From: Floridaenema evergladense BLCC-F167
GTDB taxonomy: Bacteria; Cyanobacteriota; Cyanobacteriia; Cyanobacteriales; Aerosakkonemataceae
DNA length: 32,000 nt
Assembly: GCF_041929205.1 (NCBI RefSeq)
Contig: NZ_JBHFNT010000101.1
Direction: 5' to 3' (one strand)
Below, piece by piece: positions 23,255-32,000 of the stretch (positions within the stretch are counted from its first letter, which is position 1; the number at the start of each line of letters is the position of its first letter). The notes under the pieces are model-generated. The model ran no database searches and was not told the origin of the DNA. It worked only from the letters and a program-made list of their open reading frames with translations. The position numbers were made by a program, and so were the translations under genes.

Positions 23255-23707
23255 TCAGTGCTTTTTTGACCTGCGCTTATGTTGACGGCTTCTGGCAGTA
23301 GCCATTACCGAATCTACTGGGAACCCAGGTATGGGAATTACCTGGTATTGGCGTTCTGCTTCCAGTTTTTTCAACTCTGTGTAGTCTACCCAGTGAATAC
23401 AATCAACAGGACAGGTATCAATTGCTTCTTGAATTAACTCTTCCGAGTCGCCATCCTGCCGAACTACTCGCGATCGACCATAATCAGGTTCTATATAGAA
23501 GGTATTACGCGCAACGTGAGCGCAATGCTTACAACCAATGCAGGTAATCTCATCTACATAAACACCTTTTTGCCGGAGTGAACCACCAAGTTCTGGCTCA
23601 AAACCAGAGCGTTCGGGATCGTTTCTGAGAAAACCACCTAACTCTGGTTCTAGACCCGATCGAGCTACGCCGCCATTATCTCCTGATACGGGAGAAAAGT
23701 CGGACAT
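23255..23707 (-). CDS. 4Fe-4S ferredoxin-domain protein
   Basis: 150 aa with CIGCKHCAHVA...CPVDCI (a CxxCxxC...CP cluster motif). The N-terminus contains a duplicated RSG(L/F)EPELGG(F/S)LR unit. Its ATG abuts the upstream gene's stop (ATGTAA-type junction at 23707). Confidence 0.75.
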   Translation of the reverse strand: MSDFSPVSGDNGGVARSGLEPELGGFLRNDPERSGFEPELGGSLRQKGVYVDEITCIGCKHCAHVARNTFYIEPDYGRSRVVRQDGDSEELIQEAIDTCPVDCIHWVDYTELKKLEAERQYQVIPIPGFPVDSVMATARSRQHKRRSKKH

Positions 23708-24093
23708 TAGCCCCTCCAGCGTTGTACAACTAGGCGAATTGAACCATCTTCATTTTTTTGTTGTTCGGCAACTTGGAAACCTTGTTTAGCGGTTTCATTT
23801 AATACAGTTTGGAAAGCATAACGCTGAGTGATTTTATTTAAAAATCTATCTACAGTGATGGGTTGCTGCCAATACTGTAAGTCGGCAACTAATTCATATT
23901 CGTTGCCGTTCCATCTAAAGCCAATGTCGTAACCATTTTCCTGCTCGATCGCAATTTCAGCATTAATGGTTTGACCGCGATAACCGCGCACTGGACAAGG
24001 GCCAGATTTCCAATCAATCCCTAAGTCTGTCAAAGCAGTTTGCAGGGAGACAAGGTTACGGAGTTGAGTTTTGATTTGGCTAAAGTGTGACAT
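23707..24093 (-). CDS. DUF1257-like protein (conserved in cyanobacteria and plastid-bearing lineages)
   Basis: 128 aa. MSHFSQIKTQLRNL..L..AL.DLG...RGY.G......I......YDIGF....EYELVAD..YW is recognisable as the DUF1257 pattern. Confidence 0.55.
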   Translation of the reverse strand: MSHFSQIKTQLRNLVSLQTALTDLGIDWKSGPCPVRGYRGQTINAEIAIEQENGYDIGFRWNGNEYELVADLQYWQQPITVDRFLNKITQRYAFQTVLNETAKQGFQVAEQQKNEDGSIRLVVQRWRG

Positions 24094-24137
24094 AGTTTCT
24101 GATGATTAAAACAAAGTAAAATTTTTGAAAAAACAAC

Positions 24138-24362
24138 TTACCATTCACTAAAAGTCGCTTGGGTTGTGGCTGCGTTTGATTGCTCTAATACTTGAGCAAA
24201 ATACTCAGAAGTTTCCTCCTGACTAAGTACTTGTCCAAGTTGAGCTTCAATTGCAGCCGTAACCTCAGCACAGGAATTCCCTATGATGCCAGTAACTTTT
24301 TCTTTGACTCGCCCATCGGGATAGATGATAAACTCTAGTGTTTCCATGCTTTTGGTTGTCAC
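24138..24362 (-). CDS. DUF2997-like small protein
   Basis: 74 aa. LEFIIYPDGRVKEKVTGIIGNSCAEVTAAIEAQLG is the DUF2997 pattern, and it has the usual neighbourhood with DUF1257 plus a ferredoxin. Confidence 0.55.
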   Translation of the reverse strand: MTTKSMETLEFIIYPDGRVKEKVTGIIGNSCAEVTAAIEAQLGQVLSQEETSEYFAQVLEQSNAATTQATFSEW

Positions 24363-26523: not shown

Positions 26524-26596
26524 GGGCGGTTAGCTCAGTTGGTAGAGCGCTTGCCTTACAAGCAAGATGTCACTGGTTCGAGTCCAGTACTGCCCA
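26524..26596 (+). tRNA. tRNA-Val (anticodon UAC)
   Basis: Hand-folded cloverleaf. Acceptor stem GGGCGGT/ACTGCCC (one G-U pair), D stem GCTC/GAGC, anticodon stem CTTGC/GCAAG with loop CTTACAA, T stem ACTGG/CCAGT with loop TTCGAGT, discriminator A. CCA is not encoded. Confidence 0.9.
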
Positions 26597-26614
26597 TACA
26601 ATACATGAAAAATA

Positions 26615-26649
26615 GGTACGGATTGGCACAAAAATCTGTACCTTTTTTT
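26615..26649 (+). terminator. Hairpin plus T7 run after the tRNA
   Basis: ggtacgg-...-ctgtacc followed by ttttttt. Confidence 0.5.
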
Positions 26650-26673: not shown

Positions 26674-26720
26674 AGTCCGCGAAGGCGGACTTCGTTTGTG
26701 TAGATGCGGTTTCAACCGCC
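26674..26720. repeat. Two short GC-rich hairpins typical of cyanobacterial dispersed repeats
   Basis: agtccgc-gaag-gcggact and gcggt-ttca-accgc, 14 nt apart. Confidence 0.5.
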
Positions 26721-26901
26721 CAATCTTCTCGTCTAACTCACAAGTTTTTTAATGGGGAGATTAGCGATCGCAATTTTCAATTAACTGCCAAATTAATTCT
26801 TAATAATTTCTGTAATTTATTCTGCGAGAGTGCGATCGAGTTGTCAAACGTTAAATGGATCGGCTAAAAATAAATTAAAATCTATCTTTGAGTAGTAACC
26901 G

Positions 26902-27330
26902 ATGGAACCTGTATCCTTGACGGCTGGCGCGATCGCATCTTTGGCTTTTGCCAAGGTATTTGAAACTACTATAGAAAAGTTTACAGAAAAGGCTTTGGAA
27001 AAAATCGATCGCCTGCGTGAGAAAATTTGGAATAAGTTGCGAGGTACAAAAGCAGAAAGCGCATTGGCGGAGGTTGAAAAAGGTTCAAAAGTAGATTTAG
27101 ATAAGGTTGCTCTTTATTTACAAGTGGTGATGACTGAAGAACCGGAGTTTGCTAAAGAAATAGAAACTCTGGCGAAAGAGATTCAGCAAGAAATTAATAT
27201 CGAAAATCAGAAAGGTCAAAATATTCAGAATGTTTATGGTGGAGAAGCTGAACAAAATAATGCAATTGGTACTAATGCGCCAGTGATTCAAGGTGGCAGC
27301 GGTCATAATATAACATTCAACCAATACTGA
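26902..27330 (+). CDS. N-terminal helical (HeLo/Bell-like?) module with a Q/N/G-rich tail; in frame with the downstream NB-ARC-TPR ORF
   Basis: 142 aa with a small-residue hydrophobic N-terminal helix (VSLTAGAIASLAFAKVF), then amphipathic helices, then NQKGQNIQNVYGGEAEQNNAIGTNAPVIQGGSGHNITFNQY. It ends at TGA 27328-27330, the same frame as 27466..29697. Confidence 0.6.
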   Translation: MEPVSLTAGAIASLAFAKVFETTIEKFTEKALEKIDRLREKIWNKLRGTKAESALAEVEKGSKVDLDKVALYLQVVMTEEPEFAKEIETLAKEIQQEINIENQKGQNIQNVYGGEAEQNNAIGTNAPVIQGGSGHNITFNQY

Positions 27331-27465
27331 CAGCGATCGTCGGGAAGGGAACCGATAAAGTTAAATCCCCCTTTTGAAAATATTCCTCCTAGTAATTCCA
27401 TCGCCTTTGTCGGAAGAGACAAACAACTAACAGAATTACACCAACTTTTACAAAAAAATAGCCAA

Positions 27466-29697
27466 GTGGTAATTGCGGCGATTAATGGGATGGGGGGAGT
27501 GGGGAAAACTGAGTTGGCGATTCAATATGCGACACAACATTTATTAGATTATCCCGGTGGGATTTGTTGGGTAAACGCGCAGGGACTTTTGGCGGGACTG
27601 CAAATTCTCAGATTTGCGGAAATTCAATTTAATATTGTTCCTCCTGATGATTGGGAATTAGCAGATAAGTTGCAGTATTGTTGGCAAAAATGGCAGCCGG
27701 GGAATGTGCTGTTTATTTTTGATGATGTGTTTAATTACAAACAACAAGTTAAACCTTTTTTGCCAAATCAATCTCGGTTTAAGGTGTTGCTGACGACGCG
27801 ATTTCAGTTTGATTCGACTTTGCAGCAGTTACGGTTGGATGTGCTGAAACCTTTGGCGGCGATGCGGTTATTAAAATCCATTGTTGGTAGAGAAAGACTG
27901 AAACAAGAACCAAAGATTGCCAGAAGTCTTTGTCAGTTTTTGGGATATTTGCCTTTGGCGTTGGAATTGGTGGGACGTTATCTCGATTTACAGCCGAATT
28001 TGTCTTTGGCTAGGTTGTTGCGGCGATTGGAAAAACAGCGATTAGAACATGCGGCTTTAATCGCGGCGAATCCTTTGATGCGGTATGAGTTTGGGGTGGA
28101 AGAGGCGATTAATTTAAGTTGGGAACAGTTGGATGAAAATGCGAAAAATGTCGGTTGTTATTTGAGTTTGTTTGCTTTGGCGGCGATTCCTTTTTCAACT
28201 GATGGGATAGAAGATGAAGATGAACAGGAAGCATGGGAAAAGGCGCTGCGGGATTTGCAACATTGGCATTTGCTTCAGGAAGTGCGTCAGGAAACCTATC
28301 GTTTACATCCTTTGATTCGGCAATTTTTGCAAAAGCGGTTGGATGAGTTGACTCAAGCAGAGGAAATGAAACGAAATTTTGCTGCACAAATCGTGGCAGT
28401 CGCAAAGCAAATTAAATATGACACTACTCGTGATGATATCATTAAGTTCAGCCCTTGGATTCCTCACTTGGAAGAATTGATGAATCTGGATAGCGATTTG
28501 ATTCAATATCTCAAAGATGAGGATATAATTAAGCCTTTCACAGGCTTAGGCTGGTTTTATGAAGGTCAAAGTTTCTATCAGCAGGCAGAAGTTTGGCTTC
28601 ATCAATGTGTAGAGGTGGCTAAACGAAGATTGGGTGAAAAACATAGCGATTTCTCCGACATCCTCAACAACTTAGCTAATCTTTACTGTTCCCAAGGACG
28701 ATACAGCGAAGCCGAACCATTATATAAGCAAGCTTTGGAAATCGATAGCCAAAGTTTGCAATCACATCATCTCCATTTAGCAAGACACCTCAACAACTTA
28801 GCCGCACTTTACTCTTCTCAAGGCCGTTACAGCGAAGCCGAACCATTATATAAGCAAGCTTTGGAAATCGATAGCCAAAGTTTGCCAGAAAATCATTCCC
28901 AGTTAGCTATTTACCTCAACAACTTAGCCAATCTTTACTATTTCCAAGGCCGGTACAGCGAAGCCGAACCATTATATAAGCAAGCTTTGGAAATCGATCG
29001 CCAGAGTTTGCCAGAAAATCATCCCAGTATAGCTACCCACCTCAACAACTTAGCCGGACTTTACGAATCCCAAGGCAGATACAGCGAAGCGGAACCATTA
29101 TATCTGCAAGCTTTGTCAATCCATCGCCAGAGTTTGCCAGAAAATCATCCCAGTTTAGCTACCCACCTCAACAACTTAGCCGGACTTTACGAATCCCAAG
29201 GCAGATACAGCGAAGCGGAACCATTATATCTGCAAGCTTTGTCAATCGATCGCCAGAGTTTGCCAGAAAATCATCCCGAATTAGCTGCCCACCTCAACAA
29301 CTTAGCCGAACTTTACCGTTCCCAAGGCAGATACAGCGAAGCGGAACCATTATATCTGCAAGCTTTGTCAATCGATCGCCAGAGTTTGCCAGAAAATCAT
29401 CCCAGTATAGCTACCCACCTCAACAACTTAGCCGAACTTTACCGTTCCCAAGGCAGATACAGCGAAGCGGAACCATTATATACAGAGTCATTAAACATTT
29501 GTGAATCCCAATTAGGAGTAGCTCATCGTGATACAATCACAGTTCGAGGAAATTATGCAGAGTTTTTGAGAGATTATGCAACCTTTTTGAAACAAAAGCT
29601 TGTTGAAAGTGGCGCTGATTTAGAAGTGTTGCAAAAGAACCCTTTGTTTTTGGAAATTATGAGGGAATTTCTCCCCGAAAATCTCCCAAATGAATAA
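27466..29697 (+). CDS. STAND NTPase: NB-ARC domain plus TPR array (NLR-like). Homology continues upstream to 27331 with no start codon
   Basis: Walker A GMGGVGKT, Walker B VLFIFDDV, KVLLTTR and the GYLPLALELVG (GLPLA) motif, followed by seven 42-aa TPR units. The codons at 27331-27465 read QRSSGREPIKLNPPFENIPPSNSIAFVGRDKQLTELHQLLQKNSQ. This is the usual pre-P-loop FVGRexEL helix, but it contains no ATG, GTG or TTG. Confidence 0.8.
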   Translation: MVIAAINGMGGVGKTELAIQYATQHLLDYPGGICWVNAQGLLAGLQILRFAEIQFNIVPPDDWELADKLQYCWQKWQPGNVLFIFDDVFNYKQQVKPFLPNQSRFKVLLTTRFQFDSTLQQLRLDVLKPLAAMRLLKSIVGRERLKQEPKIARSLCQFLGYLPLALELVGRYLDLQPNLSLARLLRRLEKQRLEHAALIAANPLMRYEFGVEEAINLSWEQLDENAKNVGCYLSLFALAAIPFSTDGIEDEDEQEAWEKALRDLQHWHLLQEVRQETYRLHPLIRQFLQKRLDELTQAEEMKRNFAAQIVAVAKQIKYDTTRDDIIKFSPWIPHLEELMNLDSDLIQYLKDEDIIKPFTGLGWFYEGQSFYQQAEVWLHQCVEVAKRRLGEKHSDFSDILNNLANLYCSQGRYSEAEPLYKQALEIDSQSLQSHHLHLARHLNNLAALYSSQGRYSEAEPLYKQALEIDSQSLPENHSQLAIYLNNLANLYYFQGRYSEAEPLYKQALEIDRQSLPENHPSIATHLNNLAGLYESQGRYSEAEPLYLQALSIHRQSLPENHPSLATHLNNLAGLYESQGRYSEAEPLYLQALSIDRQSLPENHPELAAHLNNLAELYRSQGRYSEAEPLYLQALSIDRQSLPENHPSIATHLNNLAELYRSQGRYSEAEPLYTESLNICESQLGVAHRDTITVRGNYAEFLRDYATFLKQKLVESGADLEVLQKNPLFLEIMREFLPENLPNE
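28663..29490 (+). repeat. Tandem 126-bp (42-aa) coding repeats, about 6.5 units, encoding the TPR array
   Basis: ctcaacaacttagc recurs at 28663, 28789, 28915, 29041, 29167, 29293 and 29419, with an exact 126-nt period. Adjacent units differ at only a handful of bases. Confidence 0.9.
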
Positions 29698-29945: not shown

Positions 29946-30158
29946 ATGTTTGCCATAGAATTCCAAGCCAATATTAAAAATGGATTTATCGAAATCCCCG
30001 AAGAATACAAACATCAATTTCAGCAAGAAAAAAGCATCAAAGTTATTCTGCTTAAAGATGAACAATCACCAAATCGAGATATGATAGCACACCTTCTCGA
30101 TCATCCCATTCAGGTGAATGAATTTACCCCAATGAAACGGGATGAAATTTATGAGTGA
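29946..30158 (+). CDS. Putative antitoxin of the adjacent PIN toxin
   Basis: 70 aa with the NGFIEIPEEYK motif (AbrB/SpoVT-like half-site). It overlaps the toxin gene start. Confidence 0.5.
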   Translation: MFAIEFQANIKNGFIEIPEEYKHQFQQEKSIKVILLKDEQSPNRDMIAHLLDHPIQVNEFTPMKRDEIYE

Positions 30159-30582
30159 AGCTACCAAATATTCTTGCTTTGTAGATTCTAACATCTGGCT
30201 TTATGCCATGATCAAAACCTCTGCACCAGATAGCAGACAAGCAAAAGCAAAATCTTTGCTATCCAGTCAAGAGGATGTAATAGTAATCAGTACGCAAATA
30301 GTAAATGAAGTTTGCGTCAATCTGATTAAGAAATCTCTGCTGGATGAACAGCAAATCGAAGACTTAATCAAATCTTTTTACAAAAAGTATCGTGTCATAG
30401 AGATAAATTTGCCCATATTGTTAAAAGCTTCTCAATTACGAAAACAATATAGTTTTTCATTTTGGGATAGTTTGATTGTGGCTAGTGCTTTGCACGCAGA
30501 TACTAAAATTATTTACTCTGAAGATATGCAAGATGGGTTAAAAGTTTTGGATAAAGTTGAAATAGTTAATCCCTTTAATTGA
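30142..30582 (+). CDS. PIN-domain toxin (VapC-like)
   Basis: 146 aa with acidic residues in the PIN positions: FVDSNIW, NEVCVNL, FWDSLIVASA and YSEDMQDG. Confidence 0.7.
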   Translation: MKFMSEATKYSCFVDSNIWLYAMIKTSAPDSRQAKAKSLLSSQEDVIVISTQIVNEVCVNLIKKSLLDEQQIEDLIKSFYKKYRVIEINLPILLKASQLRKQYSFSFWDSLIVASALHADTKIIYSEDMQDGLKVLDKVEIVNPFN

Positions 30583-30584
30583 TA

Positions 30585-30773
30585 TTAATTTAATTTATTT
30601 CCTCTTTCTTGACGACGACGGTTAAGAGAACTGTTTCTAATATGTGCTTCTGCACTAGCAATAGCTTCATCTAATGTCATATTTAGTGCATCAAACATCA
30701 AACAAACTTCCCGCAAACGCGCCACAGACTTTGCGCGTGTCTCAGCATCCGGTATTTTGGGATTTGTGTTCAT
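30585..30773 (-). CDS. Hypothetical small protein (62 aa)
   Basis: Tracked ORF 30585..30785. ATG 30773 is the likely start. It is the third gene of a tightly packed minus-strand trio, and I recognise no family. Confidence 0.35.
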   Translation of the reverse strand: MNTNPKIPDAETRAKSVARLREVCLMFDALNMTLDEAIASAEAHIRNSSLNRRRQERGNKLN

Positions 30774-30803
30774 GGTAAATTCCAATTTATTACCTACCTA
30801 ATT

Positions 30804-30974
30804 CTAATTCGTTTCACCGACTTTTTGTTTTGCAGCAGGGTTTTTTGGTAGGCGTTGTTCCCACTTTTTCGCTATTTTGTCGGCAAATTCTGCCATTTCT
30901 CTAGCTTTCTGTTCGGCAATTTCGATCTCTTTAAGAATTTCAGCTTGTCTCTTTGCGTTTGGTAACTGTTTCAC
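30804..30974 (-). CDS. Hypothetical small coiled-coil protein (56 aa), not in the ORF track
   Basis: The GTG at 30974-30972 overlaps the upstream gene's TGA (GTGA). It translates to VKQLPNAKRQAEILKEIEIAEQKAREMAEFADKIAKKWEQRLPKNPAAKQKVGETN*. Confidence 0.35.
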   Translation of the reverse strand: MKQLPNAKRQAEILKEIEIAEQKAREMAEFADKIAKKWEQRLPKNPAAKQKVGETN

Positions 30975-31318
30975 GGTAATTCCTCCAAAGTATTCATAAT
31001 ACGTCTGACACCCATTTTAGCTTCTATTACCCGACCTAGTTGTTCTCCCAAATCTTCGCCTGCTTCCTGAATTAACTCCTCTTTTATATCTTCTGGTTCA
31101 ATTGTTTCAATTGTAGCTTGTATCCGTCTTCTAGAGCTATCTATAAAAAATAGCACATTATTAAAGTAACTGAAATAGCCCATCAACAGATTGTTGTTTG
31201 GAAAAATAGACAATAAAGGTCTAACTCTGTTGAGTCCACTGATTAATTCTTGTTCGGTTTCGTTTAGTTCTTGATTCAGGCGATCGACTAGTTCTAATAT
31301 TTCTGAAGGAATCGTCAT
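30971..31318 (-). CDS. Hypothetical protein (115 aa)
   Basis: Tracked ORF, predicted helical, with no recognisable family. Confidence 0.4.
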   Translation of the reverse strand: MTIPSEILELVDRLNQELNETEQELISGLNRVRPLLSIFPNNNLLMGYFSYFNNVLFFIDSSRRRIQATIETIEPEDIKEELIQEAGEDLGEQLGRVIEAKMGVRRIMNTLEELP

Positions 31319-31423
31319 TGATAGGAAAAATTGTTAATTTATTATCATAAATATACTGTAAATAATGCTAAAATAAGCAAATATCCAAGAAACAATTGAA
31401 CTTTACCTTGAATCAACAGAACA

Positions 31424-31657
31424 ATGAAACTGCGACAAAACATAAATGCCTTTATCCGTCTTGGCGAACAGAAAGGCTATGTAGCTGAGTGCTTAGAAAT
31501 TTCTGTGGTAACACAGGGAGATACATTAGATGAAGTGGCAACAAATATCGTTGAAGCTGTTACTCTACATTTGGAAGATGAAGATCCGGCTGAATTTGGA
31601 TTAGTGGCTAAACCGACAATTATATTAACTTTTGAATTACAACCAGAATATGCCTAA
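31424..31657 (+). CDS. HicB-family antitoxin
   Basis: 77 aa. GYVAECLEISVVTQGDTLDEVATNIVEAVTLHLE is the HicB N-domain pattern. It overlaps the hicA start by 8 nt. Confidence 0.7.
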   Translation: MKLRQNINAFIRLGEQKGYVAECLEISVVTQGDTLDEVATNIVEAVTLHLEDEDPAEFGLVAKPTIILTFELQPEYA

Positions 31658-32000
31658 ACTCAAAATATTATCGGGTGCAGAAGTAGTTGATATTTTCGCT
31701 AATTTTGGCTTTCAGATACACAGCCAAAAAGGGAGTCACATCAAACTGCGTCGCCAAGGAATTGCGGAAAAGGAAACTCTTACACTACCTAATCATGCAG
31801 AGTTAGATACGGGAACTTGTAAAGCAATTTTCAGACAGGCAAGCAAATATATTCCAGAGTCAGCAGCAATTCTCATTTTGAAAGAAAATCAGAGAAAATT
31901 CCCTTACTTAAATAGAGAACTTCTGTCGAAGCATTGTTTTTTGACAGATAATTATCATCCGATGCTGAAGATAGACAGATTTTCAGAAATTTGTCCATAA
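31650..32000 (+). CDS. HicA-family mRNA-interferase toxin with a C-terminal extension
   Basis: Tracked ORF 31632..32000. ATG 31650 gives MPKLKILSGAEVVDIFANFGFQIHSQKGSHIKLRR...LTLPNHAELDTGTCKAIFRQASKYIPES, a complete HicA/YcfA pattern with the GSH motif. About 45 further codons follow before the TAA at the very end of the window. Confidence 0.7.
   Translation: MPKLKILSGAEVVDIFANFGFQIHSQKGSHIKLRRQGIAEKETLTLPNHAELDTGTCKAIFRQASKYIPESAAILILKENQRKFPYLNRELLSKHCFLTDNYHPMLKIDRFSEICP

Follow-up and report, generated by a model that had tools for sequence, protein, structure and literature searches.

Bell/BASS-NLR pairs of filamentous cyanobacteria (10.1101/2020.01.06.895854) consist of a short helical protein and an adjacent, co-directional gene for an NB-ARC/TPR protein of the NOD-like receptor (NLR) type. 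As in fungal HET-S/NWD2 and E. coli Bab/Agp, the short protein begins with a hydrophobic helix, has an acidic residue at position 2 and ends in a C-terminal motif of ~25-40 amino acids (aa) that is rich in Q, N, G, V and I. A locus of the filamentous cyanobacterium Floridaenema evergladense BLCC-F167 (contig NZ_JBHFNT010000101.1, assembly GCF_041929205.1) resembles these pairs in each of these respects, and its N-domain has a homologue in a true matched-motif pair. It occupies positions 26902-29697 on the plus strand of the 32,000-nucleotide (nt) stretch analysed here, which we call the window. The locus differs from the pairs in that its NLR has neither a motif nor a start codon of its own; an in-frame stop codon and an RNA structure join the two parts, so that a single motif would serve both proteins. 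Comparison of this junction among 93 distinct loci makes it likely that the stop codon is a site of programmed read-through, where one mRNA would give an abundant short protein and a rare fusion of N-domain, NB-ARC and TPR. This fusion would have the same architecture as the known 'all-in-one' NLRs, one of which, free of any stop, is described below (P0379). The difference is that the default product here would be the free effector part, and the all-in-one form the minor species.

The most similar recoding signals are viral. The read-through signal of Moloney murine leukaemia virus (MoMLV) places a pseudoknot at +12, behind an 8-nt spacer (PMC13517186). The cyanobacterial element shares with MoMLV gag-pol a leaky type of stop, the 8-nt spacer, a probable H-type pseudoknot at +12 and a predicted minority fusion beside an abundant short product. 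In MoMLV, however, the signal is a viral UAG with a 50-nt pseudoknot, read by eukaryotic ribosomes and eRF1, whereas the element described here is mostly UGA, lies in a bacterial chromosome, has stems of 5 bp (S1) and 3-5 bp (S2), and has a predicted function. The nsP3/nsP4 opal context of Sindbis virus, an example of the type II contexts of alphaviruses, is UAC UGA CUA (PMC13517186). Here too a UGA is followed by C and by a downstream structure; the window reads UAC UGA C, and UGA CUA is found in 45 of 89 relatives. For bacterial ribosomes, the A1 protein of phage Qbeta is an example of a functional minor read-through protein made at UGA (PMC13517186). It differs from our case in being viral and in having no known stimulatory structure. 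Sindbis and Qbeta are both viral, whereas the element described here is a cellular one that recurs in dozens of paralogous genes of immune type. The bacterial gene prfB, which encodes RF2, uses a programmed +1 frameshift at CUU UGA C that is stimulated by an upstream Shine-Dalgarno-like sequence. Both cases exploit the poor termination context UGA-C; prfB shifts the frame, whereas at our site frames +1 and +2 are closed and frame 0 continues.

We searched the literature on bacterial NLRs, BASS motifs and effector-associated domains, and that on cyanobacteria, for read-through, recoding or stop codons and found nothing relevant; subscription-only literature lay outside this search. The BASS/Bell preprint (10.1101/2020.01.06.895854) makes no mention of stop codons or read-through, and the Aravind-lab paper on conflict systems does not mention the arrangement.

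Results

Layout of the locus and reading frame

Translation of 26902-29697 gives 932 codons with one internal stop, a TGA at 27328-27330 that is followed by C at 27331. The upstream open reading frame (ORF) begins with ATG, is coding over 26902..27327 and includes its stop up to 27330. Its 142-aa product is helical over residues 1 to ~104; residues ~104-142 form a tail, QNIQNVYGGEAEQNNAIGTNAPVIQGGSGHNITFNQY. Gene callers take the GTG at 27466..27468 as the start of the NLR, and the downstream ORF so defined (27466..29697) encodes 743 aa. The long product that would arise by read-through ends at the stop codon 29695..29697 and is predicted to have 931 aa.

A first-pass annotation, made from the letters and a list of ORFs, had noted that the ORFs 26902..27330 and 27466..29697 share one frame, with an offset of 564 nt (188 codons) and a lone TGA between them. 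This is correct, as is its statement that the 45 codons 3' of the TGA (QRSSGREPIKLNPPFENIPPSNSIAFVGRDKQLTELHQLLQKNSQ) contain no ATG, GTG or TTG. These 45 sense codons (27331..27465) encode a linker and the first helix of the NB-ARC domain, FVGRDKQLTELHQLLQ. It had also argued that the first possible start, the GTG at 27466 seven codons ahead of GMGGVGKT, would truncate the domain. The Pfam search agrees with this: the NB-ARC match (PF00931, E=8e-15) covers 27418..28044, which is residues 30-238 after the TGA. It starts at profile position 2 and thus 16 codons upstream of the GTG, which lies inside the match and probably just encodes an internal Val. Within the NB-ARC domain, the Walker A motif GMGGVGKT occupies 27487-27510, and the TPR sensor region extends over 28501..29520 (Pfam TPR_12, E=3e-122, eight stretches). 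The domain order read from the letters is correct: a helical N-domain, NB-ARC and TPR, with an NTPase part that lacks a start codon. With PF00931, the Walker A motif and C-terminal TPR_12 repeats the protein has the features of an NB-ARC/TPR STAND NTPase.

Frames +1 and +2 after the TGA are closed within 9-15 codons. A +1 or -1 frameshift was considered and rejected because these frames are closed. On the + strand no promoter-like site was found between 26902 and 27466, and no promoter- or terminator-like site divides the two parts. The Logan assembly of run SRR30638121 is identical to the window over 26675-28731, including the TGA, and possibly represents the same data.

The TPR sensor contains a tandem array with a period of 126 nt (42 aa), at 28662-29482, with 6.5 copies and 90% matches according to a tandem repeat finder. 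Such homogeneity is unusual and would be expected of repeats that undergo recombination or diversification.

Conservation of the stop codon in relatives

A homologue search with the N-domain gave 122 matches at E<=1e-3. The best 120 of these 122 are free-standing proteins of 107-155 aa, none of them fused to an NTPase, mostly from filamentous cyanobacteria, Nostocales among them. We then gathered 29 genome loci using a 14-sequence alignment of the family. The small gene ends in TGA-C in 28 of the 29 and also in the last one (L030; labels with L and P are our own for loci and proteins), which has a frameshift inside the N-domain followed by the same TGA-C junction and, in frame, a different NTPase. 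In ~25 of the 29 loci the P-loop of the NB-ARC domain is found ~51 codons downstream in frame 0 with no other stop in between; several have no canonical start codon at all ahead of the P-loop. Distant relatives with 42-49% identity (L031, L033, L035) have the same arrangement, again with the alternative frames closed.

Genomes and metagenomes of filamentous cyanobacteria together gave 102 matches to a covariance model of the sequence at the junction, which correspond to 93 distinct copies of what we call the cassette. The stop is TGA in 88 of these and TAG in 5; there is no TAA and no sense codon. Four apparent CTG codons at this position are alignment offsets, and the TGA is visible in each. 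The first-pass annotation had pointed to the C that follows the TGA in the window (27331), and this C is conserved in the relatives as well. As tabulated it occupies position +4 in 88 of 93 cassettes; since four rows that are off register show TGAC, the true count is ~92, with one A. For comparison, the stops of long ORFs in the same loci are TAA in 47%, TAG in 31% and TGA in 22%, and only 3% are TGA-C. The P-loop follows in frame 0 without a stop in 80 of 93 cassettes and in frame 1 or 2 in none. Two further cassettes, which are decayed copies, have the P-loop in frame 0 behind an intervening stop, and in 11 no P-loop was detected. Of the 80 cassettes with an uninterrupted frame, 16 lack any canonical start ahead of the P-loop. 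What is found here is a stop of the leaky UGA/UAG type with C at +4, as in a read-through site, and behind it a region that is open in frame 0, coding and devoid of its own start.

The stop is conserved in relatives with as little as 42% protein identity, and it is found with N-domains of different families and with different NTPases downstream. In all, 93 distinct loci share the stop, the frame and the flanking RNA structure, an arrangement that is far beyond chance. The first-pass annotation had listed a recent nonsense mutation or a sequencing error among its explanations and had named sense codons in all orthologues as the outcome that would speak for a simple pseudogene. The comparison gave the opposite result: every relative examined in this set keeps the stop. 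Because it is conserved in all of them, across N-domain and NTPase types, the TGA is not a recent mutation.

RNA structure downstream of the stop codon

Conservation is far stronger in the nucleotides 3' of the stop than in the coding sequence around them. The family consensus is UGA CUA CAG UCG CCC GAA CGG GAA CGG GCA AAG UUA AAU CCC. With the U of UGA as position 1, a 5-bp hairpin (S1) is formed by positions 12-16 and 25-29. In the window the +4 C and the rest of the 8-nt spacer, CAGCGATC, are at 27331..27338, where the family consensus is CUACAGUC or CUGGAGUC. S1 (27339..27356) pairs GUCGG at 27339-27343 with CCGAU at 27352-27356 around an 8-nt loop, GAAGGGAA (27344-27351). A probable second stem, S2 (27347..27369), is formed between GGGA of this loop (27347-27350) and UCCC at 27366-27369. 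Together with S1 it would complete an H-type pseudoknot.

Pairing was analyzed in an ungapped alignment of 60 distinct cassettes. The spacer is 8 nt long in all of them, so that S1 always begins at +12. S1 is paired in 99.3% of cases. Pair 13-28 occurs as UA (34) or CG (24), and pair 15-26 as CG (38), GC (12), UG (6) or UA (4); the variants of the stem include GCCCG/CGGGC, GUCGG/CCGAC, GUCCG/CGGAC, GUCUG/CAGAC and GCCUG/CAGGU. Compensatory changes are found at three of the five pairs, and they alter the encoded residues (P/S, R/P, A/T). This indicates that selection acts on the pairing and not on the peptide. S2 is paired in 89%, with pair 20-42 as GC (42), GU (9), CG (2) or AU (1) and with variants such as CGGA/UCCG, AGGC/GCCU and GGGAG/CUCCC. 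The covariation score was reached by none of 500 shuffles, and slid registers pair in only 18-52% of cases, compared with 94.8% in register for the structure as a whole. When loci are searched with a covariance model of the cassette, each gives exactly one match, and this holds for loci outside the training set as well; the window scores 58.8 bits. The locus thus has a covariation-supported structure at a fixed short distance 3' of the stop, which is a further feature of read-through sites.

Some minimum free energy (MFE) folds contain a tiny GAC/GUC hairpin that includes the stop. This candidate was dropped; it is broken in many relatives by a change of U10 to C. A search of 27200-27500 against Rfam at permissive E returned just a chance match to a long non-coding RNA, and no selenocysteine insertion sequence (SECIS).

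The window itself deviates from the family consensus in the region 27322-27338. Two extra codons (CAA TAC, Gln-Tyr) stand ahead of the TGA, and the spacer is CAGCGATC, not CUACAGUC, with a GCGATCG that resembles the highly iterated palindrome HIP1. Neither the 8-nt spacing nor the two stems are affected. The window contains 24 copies of HIP1 (GCGATCGC).

The cassette in other genes

Metagenomes were scanned with a pattern that starts after the stop and leaves the preceding codon free; the scan is therefore agnostic to the stop. It returned 81 matches in 80 listed loci, which are preceded by TGA (52), TAG (10) or other codons (19). Where the 5-bp stem is perfect (59 matches), the preceding codon is TGA or TAG without exception. 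Matches behind a sense codon never have a perfect stem, and their ORFs are short at least upstream; for these reasons we read them as chance.

The ORFs upstream of the cassettes fall into ~20 clusters at 60% identity. The downstream parts include several types of NB-ARC, NACHT-like NTPases and a transmembrane (TM) protein. NB-ARC homologues that are annotated as starting with 'MVEFVGRE' or 'MVKFVGR' have an upstream gene of 143-144 aa, which belongs to a second N-domain family and is connected in frame by the same cassette.

Several single loci extend this picture. In L093 (~700-1663) a 301-aa ORF that resembles an alpha/beta-hydrolase, with a GHSMGG motif, ends in the same TGA cassette, which indicates that the cassette is not tied to the helical N-domain family. 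L028 (4373-5100) has no NTPase behind its cassette; the frame continues into a TM helix and a long region rich in Ser, Pro and Thr. A family with TAG-C (...GGNHNHYYPSDTNKEH; L043, L046, L051, L054, L060, L082, L108, L109, L114, L117, L134 and L141) has an otherwise typical cassette and then an NTPase with a P-loop of the GGYGK type; its sister L086 has TGA and nearly the same cassette. Three contigs carry two cassette systems a few kb apart: L042 (4004 and 9648), L059 (6330 and 10408) and L135 (5186 and 8113). The cassette at L135:8113 is the only one with A at +4, and its downstream ORF is shortened. Decayed copies were found in L094 (4641-4700, minus strand), in L068 (115-176, minus strand) and in the second cassette of L042 (9639-9701). 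In these the cassette and the upstream ORF are intact and a stop follows 1-25 codons past the cassette, so that individual cassette systems do die; the copy in the window is not decayed.

The short protein and its tail

The short protein begins with MEPVSLTAGAIASLAFAKVF, a hydrophobic N-terminal helix with Glu at position 2. AlphaFold2 (AF2) predicts helices over residues 8-104 with a predicted local distance difference test (pLDDT) score of ~85 and a disordered tail over residues 101-142 with pLDDT <50 (block means 33-41). The protein fits the description of Bell effectors, which are helical and ~120-140 aa long and have a hydrophobic N-terminal helix with an acidic residue at position 2 or 3. 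The tail in the window contains 64% Q, N, G, V and I and 5% K, P and L, compared with 23% and 24% in the head; 82 tails taken together contain 53% and 11%. The tail is thus enriched in the former residues and depleted of the latter, like bacterial amyloid signalling motifs.

A profile of the N-domain was searched against 1.84 billion representative proteins and matched 740 clusters at E<=1e-3. Most of the best 150 of these 740 clusters have 130-160 aa. The family distribution indicates that the short protein is a conserved gene product in its own right. Its helical domain is probably membrane-acting.

Paired and fused relatives

Two loci, L145 and L146, contain a classical effector/NLR pair. 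Their upstream 152-aa protein scores 35-39 bits with the N-domain profile. The C-terminus of this effector, QEMLKGVKATNIDVGDLNQ, matches the N-terminus of the NLR, QEIFKNVQANGNITVGKITQ. The NLR has a normal ATG, located 4 nt past the stop, and these loci lack the cassette. The N-domain of the window and the effector of a classical matched-motif pair are thus homologues. NB-ARC paralogues such as P0163 and P0212 likewise bear their own N-terminal motif. In the window NLR there is no second copy of the motif: the 45 codons between the TGA and the GTG at 27466 are taken up by the linker and the first NB-ARC helix. This NLR would obtain a motif only via read-through. The predicted read-through product has the tail ~26 residues ahead of FVGR, where the paralogues have their motif.

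Fusions without a stop also exist. P0379 is a continuous protein of 957 aa with N-domain, tail, NB-ARC and TPR, so that the architecture predicted for the read-through product is viable as a protein. Other fusions without the cassette have a TIR-like domain (P0241, P0289) or a GUN4-like domain (P0249, P0286, P0334); a Pfam match is recorded for P0286 only (GUN4), and the other domains were judged from the sequences.

Two records have a sense residue at the position of the stop. P0256 (L147, 908-970) has Trp there in the record; the DNA has TGA, and an alternative genetic code was used in gene calling. Records of this kind could be mined for read-through candidates, and they could mislead homology-based annotation. 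P0286 (L148, 1938-2001; L149, 983-1046) has GAG in place of the stop and is the only variant with a sense codon that we found; as a protein it is a fusion with a TM segment and a GUN4 domain. The cassette of L148 is the weakest seen: S1 has four of five pairs, the loop reads GGGGUU and the score is 27.3 bits. Although it is a single case, L148 fits a structure that is maintained only while the stop is present.

The closest NB-ARC relatives of the window NLR, P0121 and P0122 (89-92% identity), have a different, fused N-domain resembling a helix-turn-helix, which is joined at ENIPPSNS. The two proteins point to recent swapping of N-terminal modules at the linker.

Discussion

We favour programmed read-through of the UGA as the likely explanation of the split gene. 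Most ribosomes would terminate at UGA 27328-27330 and release the 142-aa helical protein with its Q/N/G-rich, amyloid-motif-like tail. A minority would decode the UGA, presumably as Trp via a near-cognate tRNA; the weak UGA-C context, the 8-nt spacer and the hairpin/pseudoknot at +12 would favour this decoding. These ribosomes would enter the NB-ARC/TPR region and produce the 931-aa 'all-in-one' NLR.

What the two products might do is a separate matter, on which we are more tentative. The rare fusion would be the sensor: when its TPR array is triggered, the NB-ARC domain would oligomerise and the clustered tails would nucleate a fold, and this would turn the free short protein, present in abundance, into its active, cell-killing form. 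The ratio of sensor to effector would be set by the rate of read-through. The same motif, coming from the same DNA in both proteins, would keep the specificity of each of the many paralogous systems. We give this model, in which a rare sensor converts an abundant effector via a shared amyloid-like tail, a chance that comes close to even and does not exceed it. The occurrence and rate of read-through, the inserted residue, the amyloid templating and the cell killing are all features that we infer from the comparisons above.

Several rival explanations have to be weighed against read-through. The first-pass annotation had itself offered a noncanonical start next to deliberate read-through. In its general form this alternative states that two separate proteins are made: ribosomes terminate, and the NLR is then started by reinitiation or 70S scanning, either at a non-canonical codon immediately past the stop or at the annotated GTG or TTG, with the hairpin serving coupling or regulation. 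Such a start is suggested by CUG, which directly follows the stop in 38 of 89 cassettes, and by the classical relatives, which are two genes with an ATG 4 nt after the TGA; initiation at the codon adjoining the stop would also give the shared frame automatically. Furthermore, effector/NLR pairs usually have short intergenic distances and overlaps (Dyrka preprint, 10.1101/2020.01.06.895854). However, in 45 of the 89 cassettes the stop is followed by CUA, in 3 by CCG and in the window by CAG, and these codons are not near-cognate starts. Canonical starts are not conserved either, being absent ahead of the P-loop in 16 of 80 cassettes, and the annotated GTG cuts the NB-ARC domain short. Reinitiation would leave both the absence of UAA and the +4 C unexplained, and in-frame indels together with ~50 stop-free codons in 80 of 82 cassettes with a P-loop favour translation from the stop onward. 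We therefore consider a separate start unlikely. No start-like codon is conserved after the stop, and the comparative evidence favours the deliberate read-through that had been suggested: the stop is UGA or UAG and never UAA, and it is followed by the +4 C, the 8-nt spacer and the covarying hairpin/pseudoknot.

The lack of UAA could also be expected from A-to-I editing, guided by local structure, that converts UGA or UAG to UGG (Trp) in a fraction of the transcripts. UGA and UAG are one such edit away from UGG and UAA is two, which predicts the observed 88 TGA, 5 TAG and 0 TAA, and the sequence and structure that flank the stop are conserved. The only bacterial mRNA editor that we know of is TadA, which needs a UACG loop that mimics the anticodon of tRNA-Arg. 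The stop, in contrast, lies in UGACU or UAGCU outside the hairpin loop, there is no TadA-like UACG loop, and an 8-nt spacer with a structure at +12 is typical of signals that act on the ribosome; editing is very unlikely. Even less probable is that the UGA encodes selenocysteine (Sec) and that the hairpin is a bacterial SECIS element. An in-frame UGA closely followed by a conserved hairpin is the classical signature of bacterial Sec. Against this, the same cassette goes with UAG in one family, Cys does not replace the stop in any homologue (the sole sense variant is GAG), the site is in an interdomain linker and Rfam has no match there. According to PMC1794560 the Sec trait was not detected in Cyanobacteria; the carrier genomes themselves lay outside our scans. 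The smallest probability of all belongs to a pseudogene or assembly error, i.e. a fused gene newly hit by a nonsense mutation. It is true that stop-free fused relatives such as P0379 exist and that some copies of the cassette (L094, L068, L042) are clearly decayed. The stop is present in 93 of 93 distinct cassettes, though, from several cyanobacterial orders; the frame downstream is open and conserved, the sequence is identical in a second assembly, and the short protein forms a conserved family of 740 representative clusters.

Some of our results, and some of what is known, weigh against programmed read-through and the functions proposed for its products. The evidence for read-through consists wholly of sequence comparison, and the mechanism is modelled by analogy on eukaryotic viruses. 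To our knowledge, stimulation of read-through by an RNA structure has not been shown on bacterial ribosomes outside the decoding of Sec and pyrrolysine (Pyl). The cassette of the window folds no better than shuffled sequences (z=+0.66), and its MFE structure is a different fold; the support for the RNA structure is comparative. The covariation of S2 is modest, and this stem is missing in a few cassettes (L006, L102). For the first ~14 codons past the stop, conservation of the peptide cannot be separated from the constraint on the RNA. The family itself was the source of both the metagenome pattern and the covariance model, which are blind to very different cassettes. As to the N-domain, Pfam gave sub-threshold noise only, with the single sequence and with all 32 family members. 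A Foldseek search with the AF2 model had no match in the PDB below E=3, neither to HeLo or MLKL nor to any Bab structure deposited there, and a sequence-profile search of the PDB matched designed helical bundles only, at E>0.1. The identity of the N-domain as a Bell/HeLo-like pore former is thus a candidate label that has no Pfam or PDB support and is not demonstrated.

We rate the arrangement as a combination of known kinds, namely a recoding signal and an NLR/effector system. Structure-dependent read-through signals are, as far as we know, documented only for viruses, eukaryotes and the decoding of Sec or Pyl. There is a real chance that the cassette is the first structured, programmed read-through signal in bacterial cellular genes. 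If so, it would be a case of conserved read-through by bacterial ribosomes that depends on RNA structure and acts in chromosomal genes. It would also provide a third NLR architecture besides two-gene pairs and all-in-one proteins. Hundreds of cyanobacterial NB-ARC and NACHT genes that are annotated with implausible, domain-truncating starts ('MVEFVGRE...') would be explained, and the small 'hypothetical proteins' upstream would belong to the same gene as the NTPase. It would give a simple answer to the question of how amyloid-signalling systems set the ratio of sensor to effector, and to that of how paralogous systems in one genome escape cross-talk, as the same motif would be encoded only once. 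A more general idea is that the portable cassette, consisting of UGA or UAG, C, the 8-nt spacer and a small H-type pseudoknot, makes a single gene into a complete amyloid-type signalosome, with stoichiometry and specificity set at the ribosome; we regard this as possible, at odds somewhat below even. If the read-through is real, the 42-nt cassette could serve as a tool for tunable read-through in bacteria.

Genes flanking the locus

Just upstream of the NLR locus are a tRNA-Val with the anticodon TAC (26524-26596) and a terminator-like hairpin with a T-run (26614-26643). The locus may be situated at a tRNA-flanked variable spot. Genes that resemble toxin-antitoxin systems are found directly downstream (29946-32000). 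They include an ORF with a PIN domain (30142-30582), which is overlapped by a 70-aa ORF (29946-30158), and an ORF for a HicA toxin (31632-32000), which is preceded by a 77-aa ORF (31424-31657). A DUF1257/DUF2997 pair is located on the minus strand at 23707-24362.

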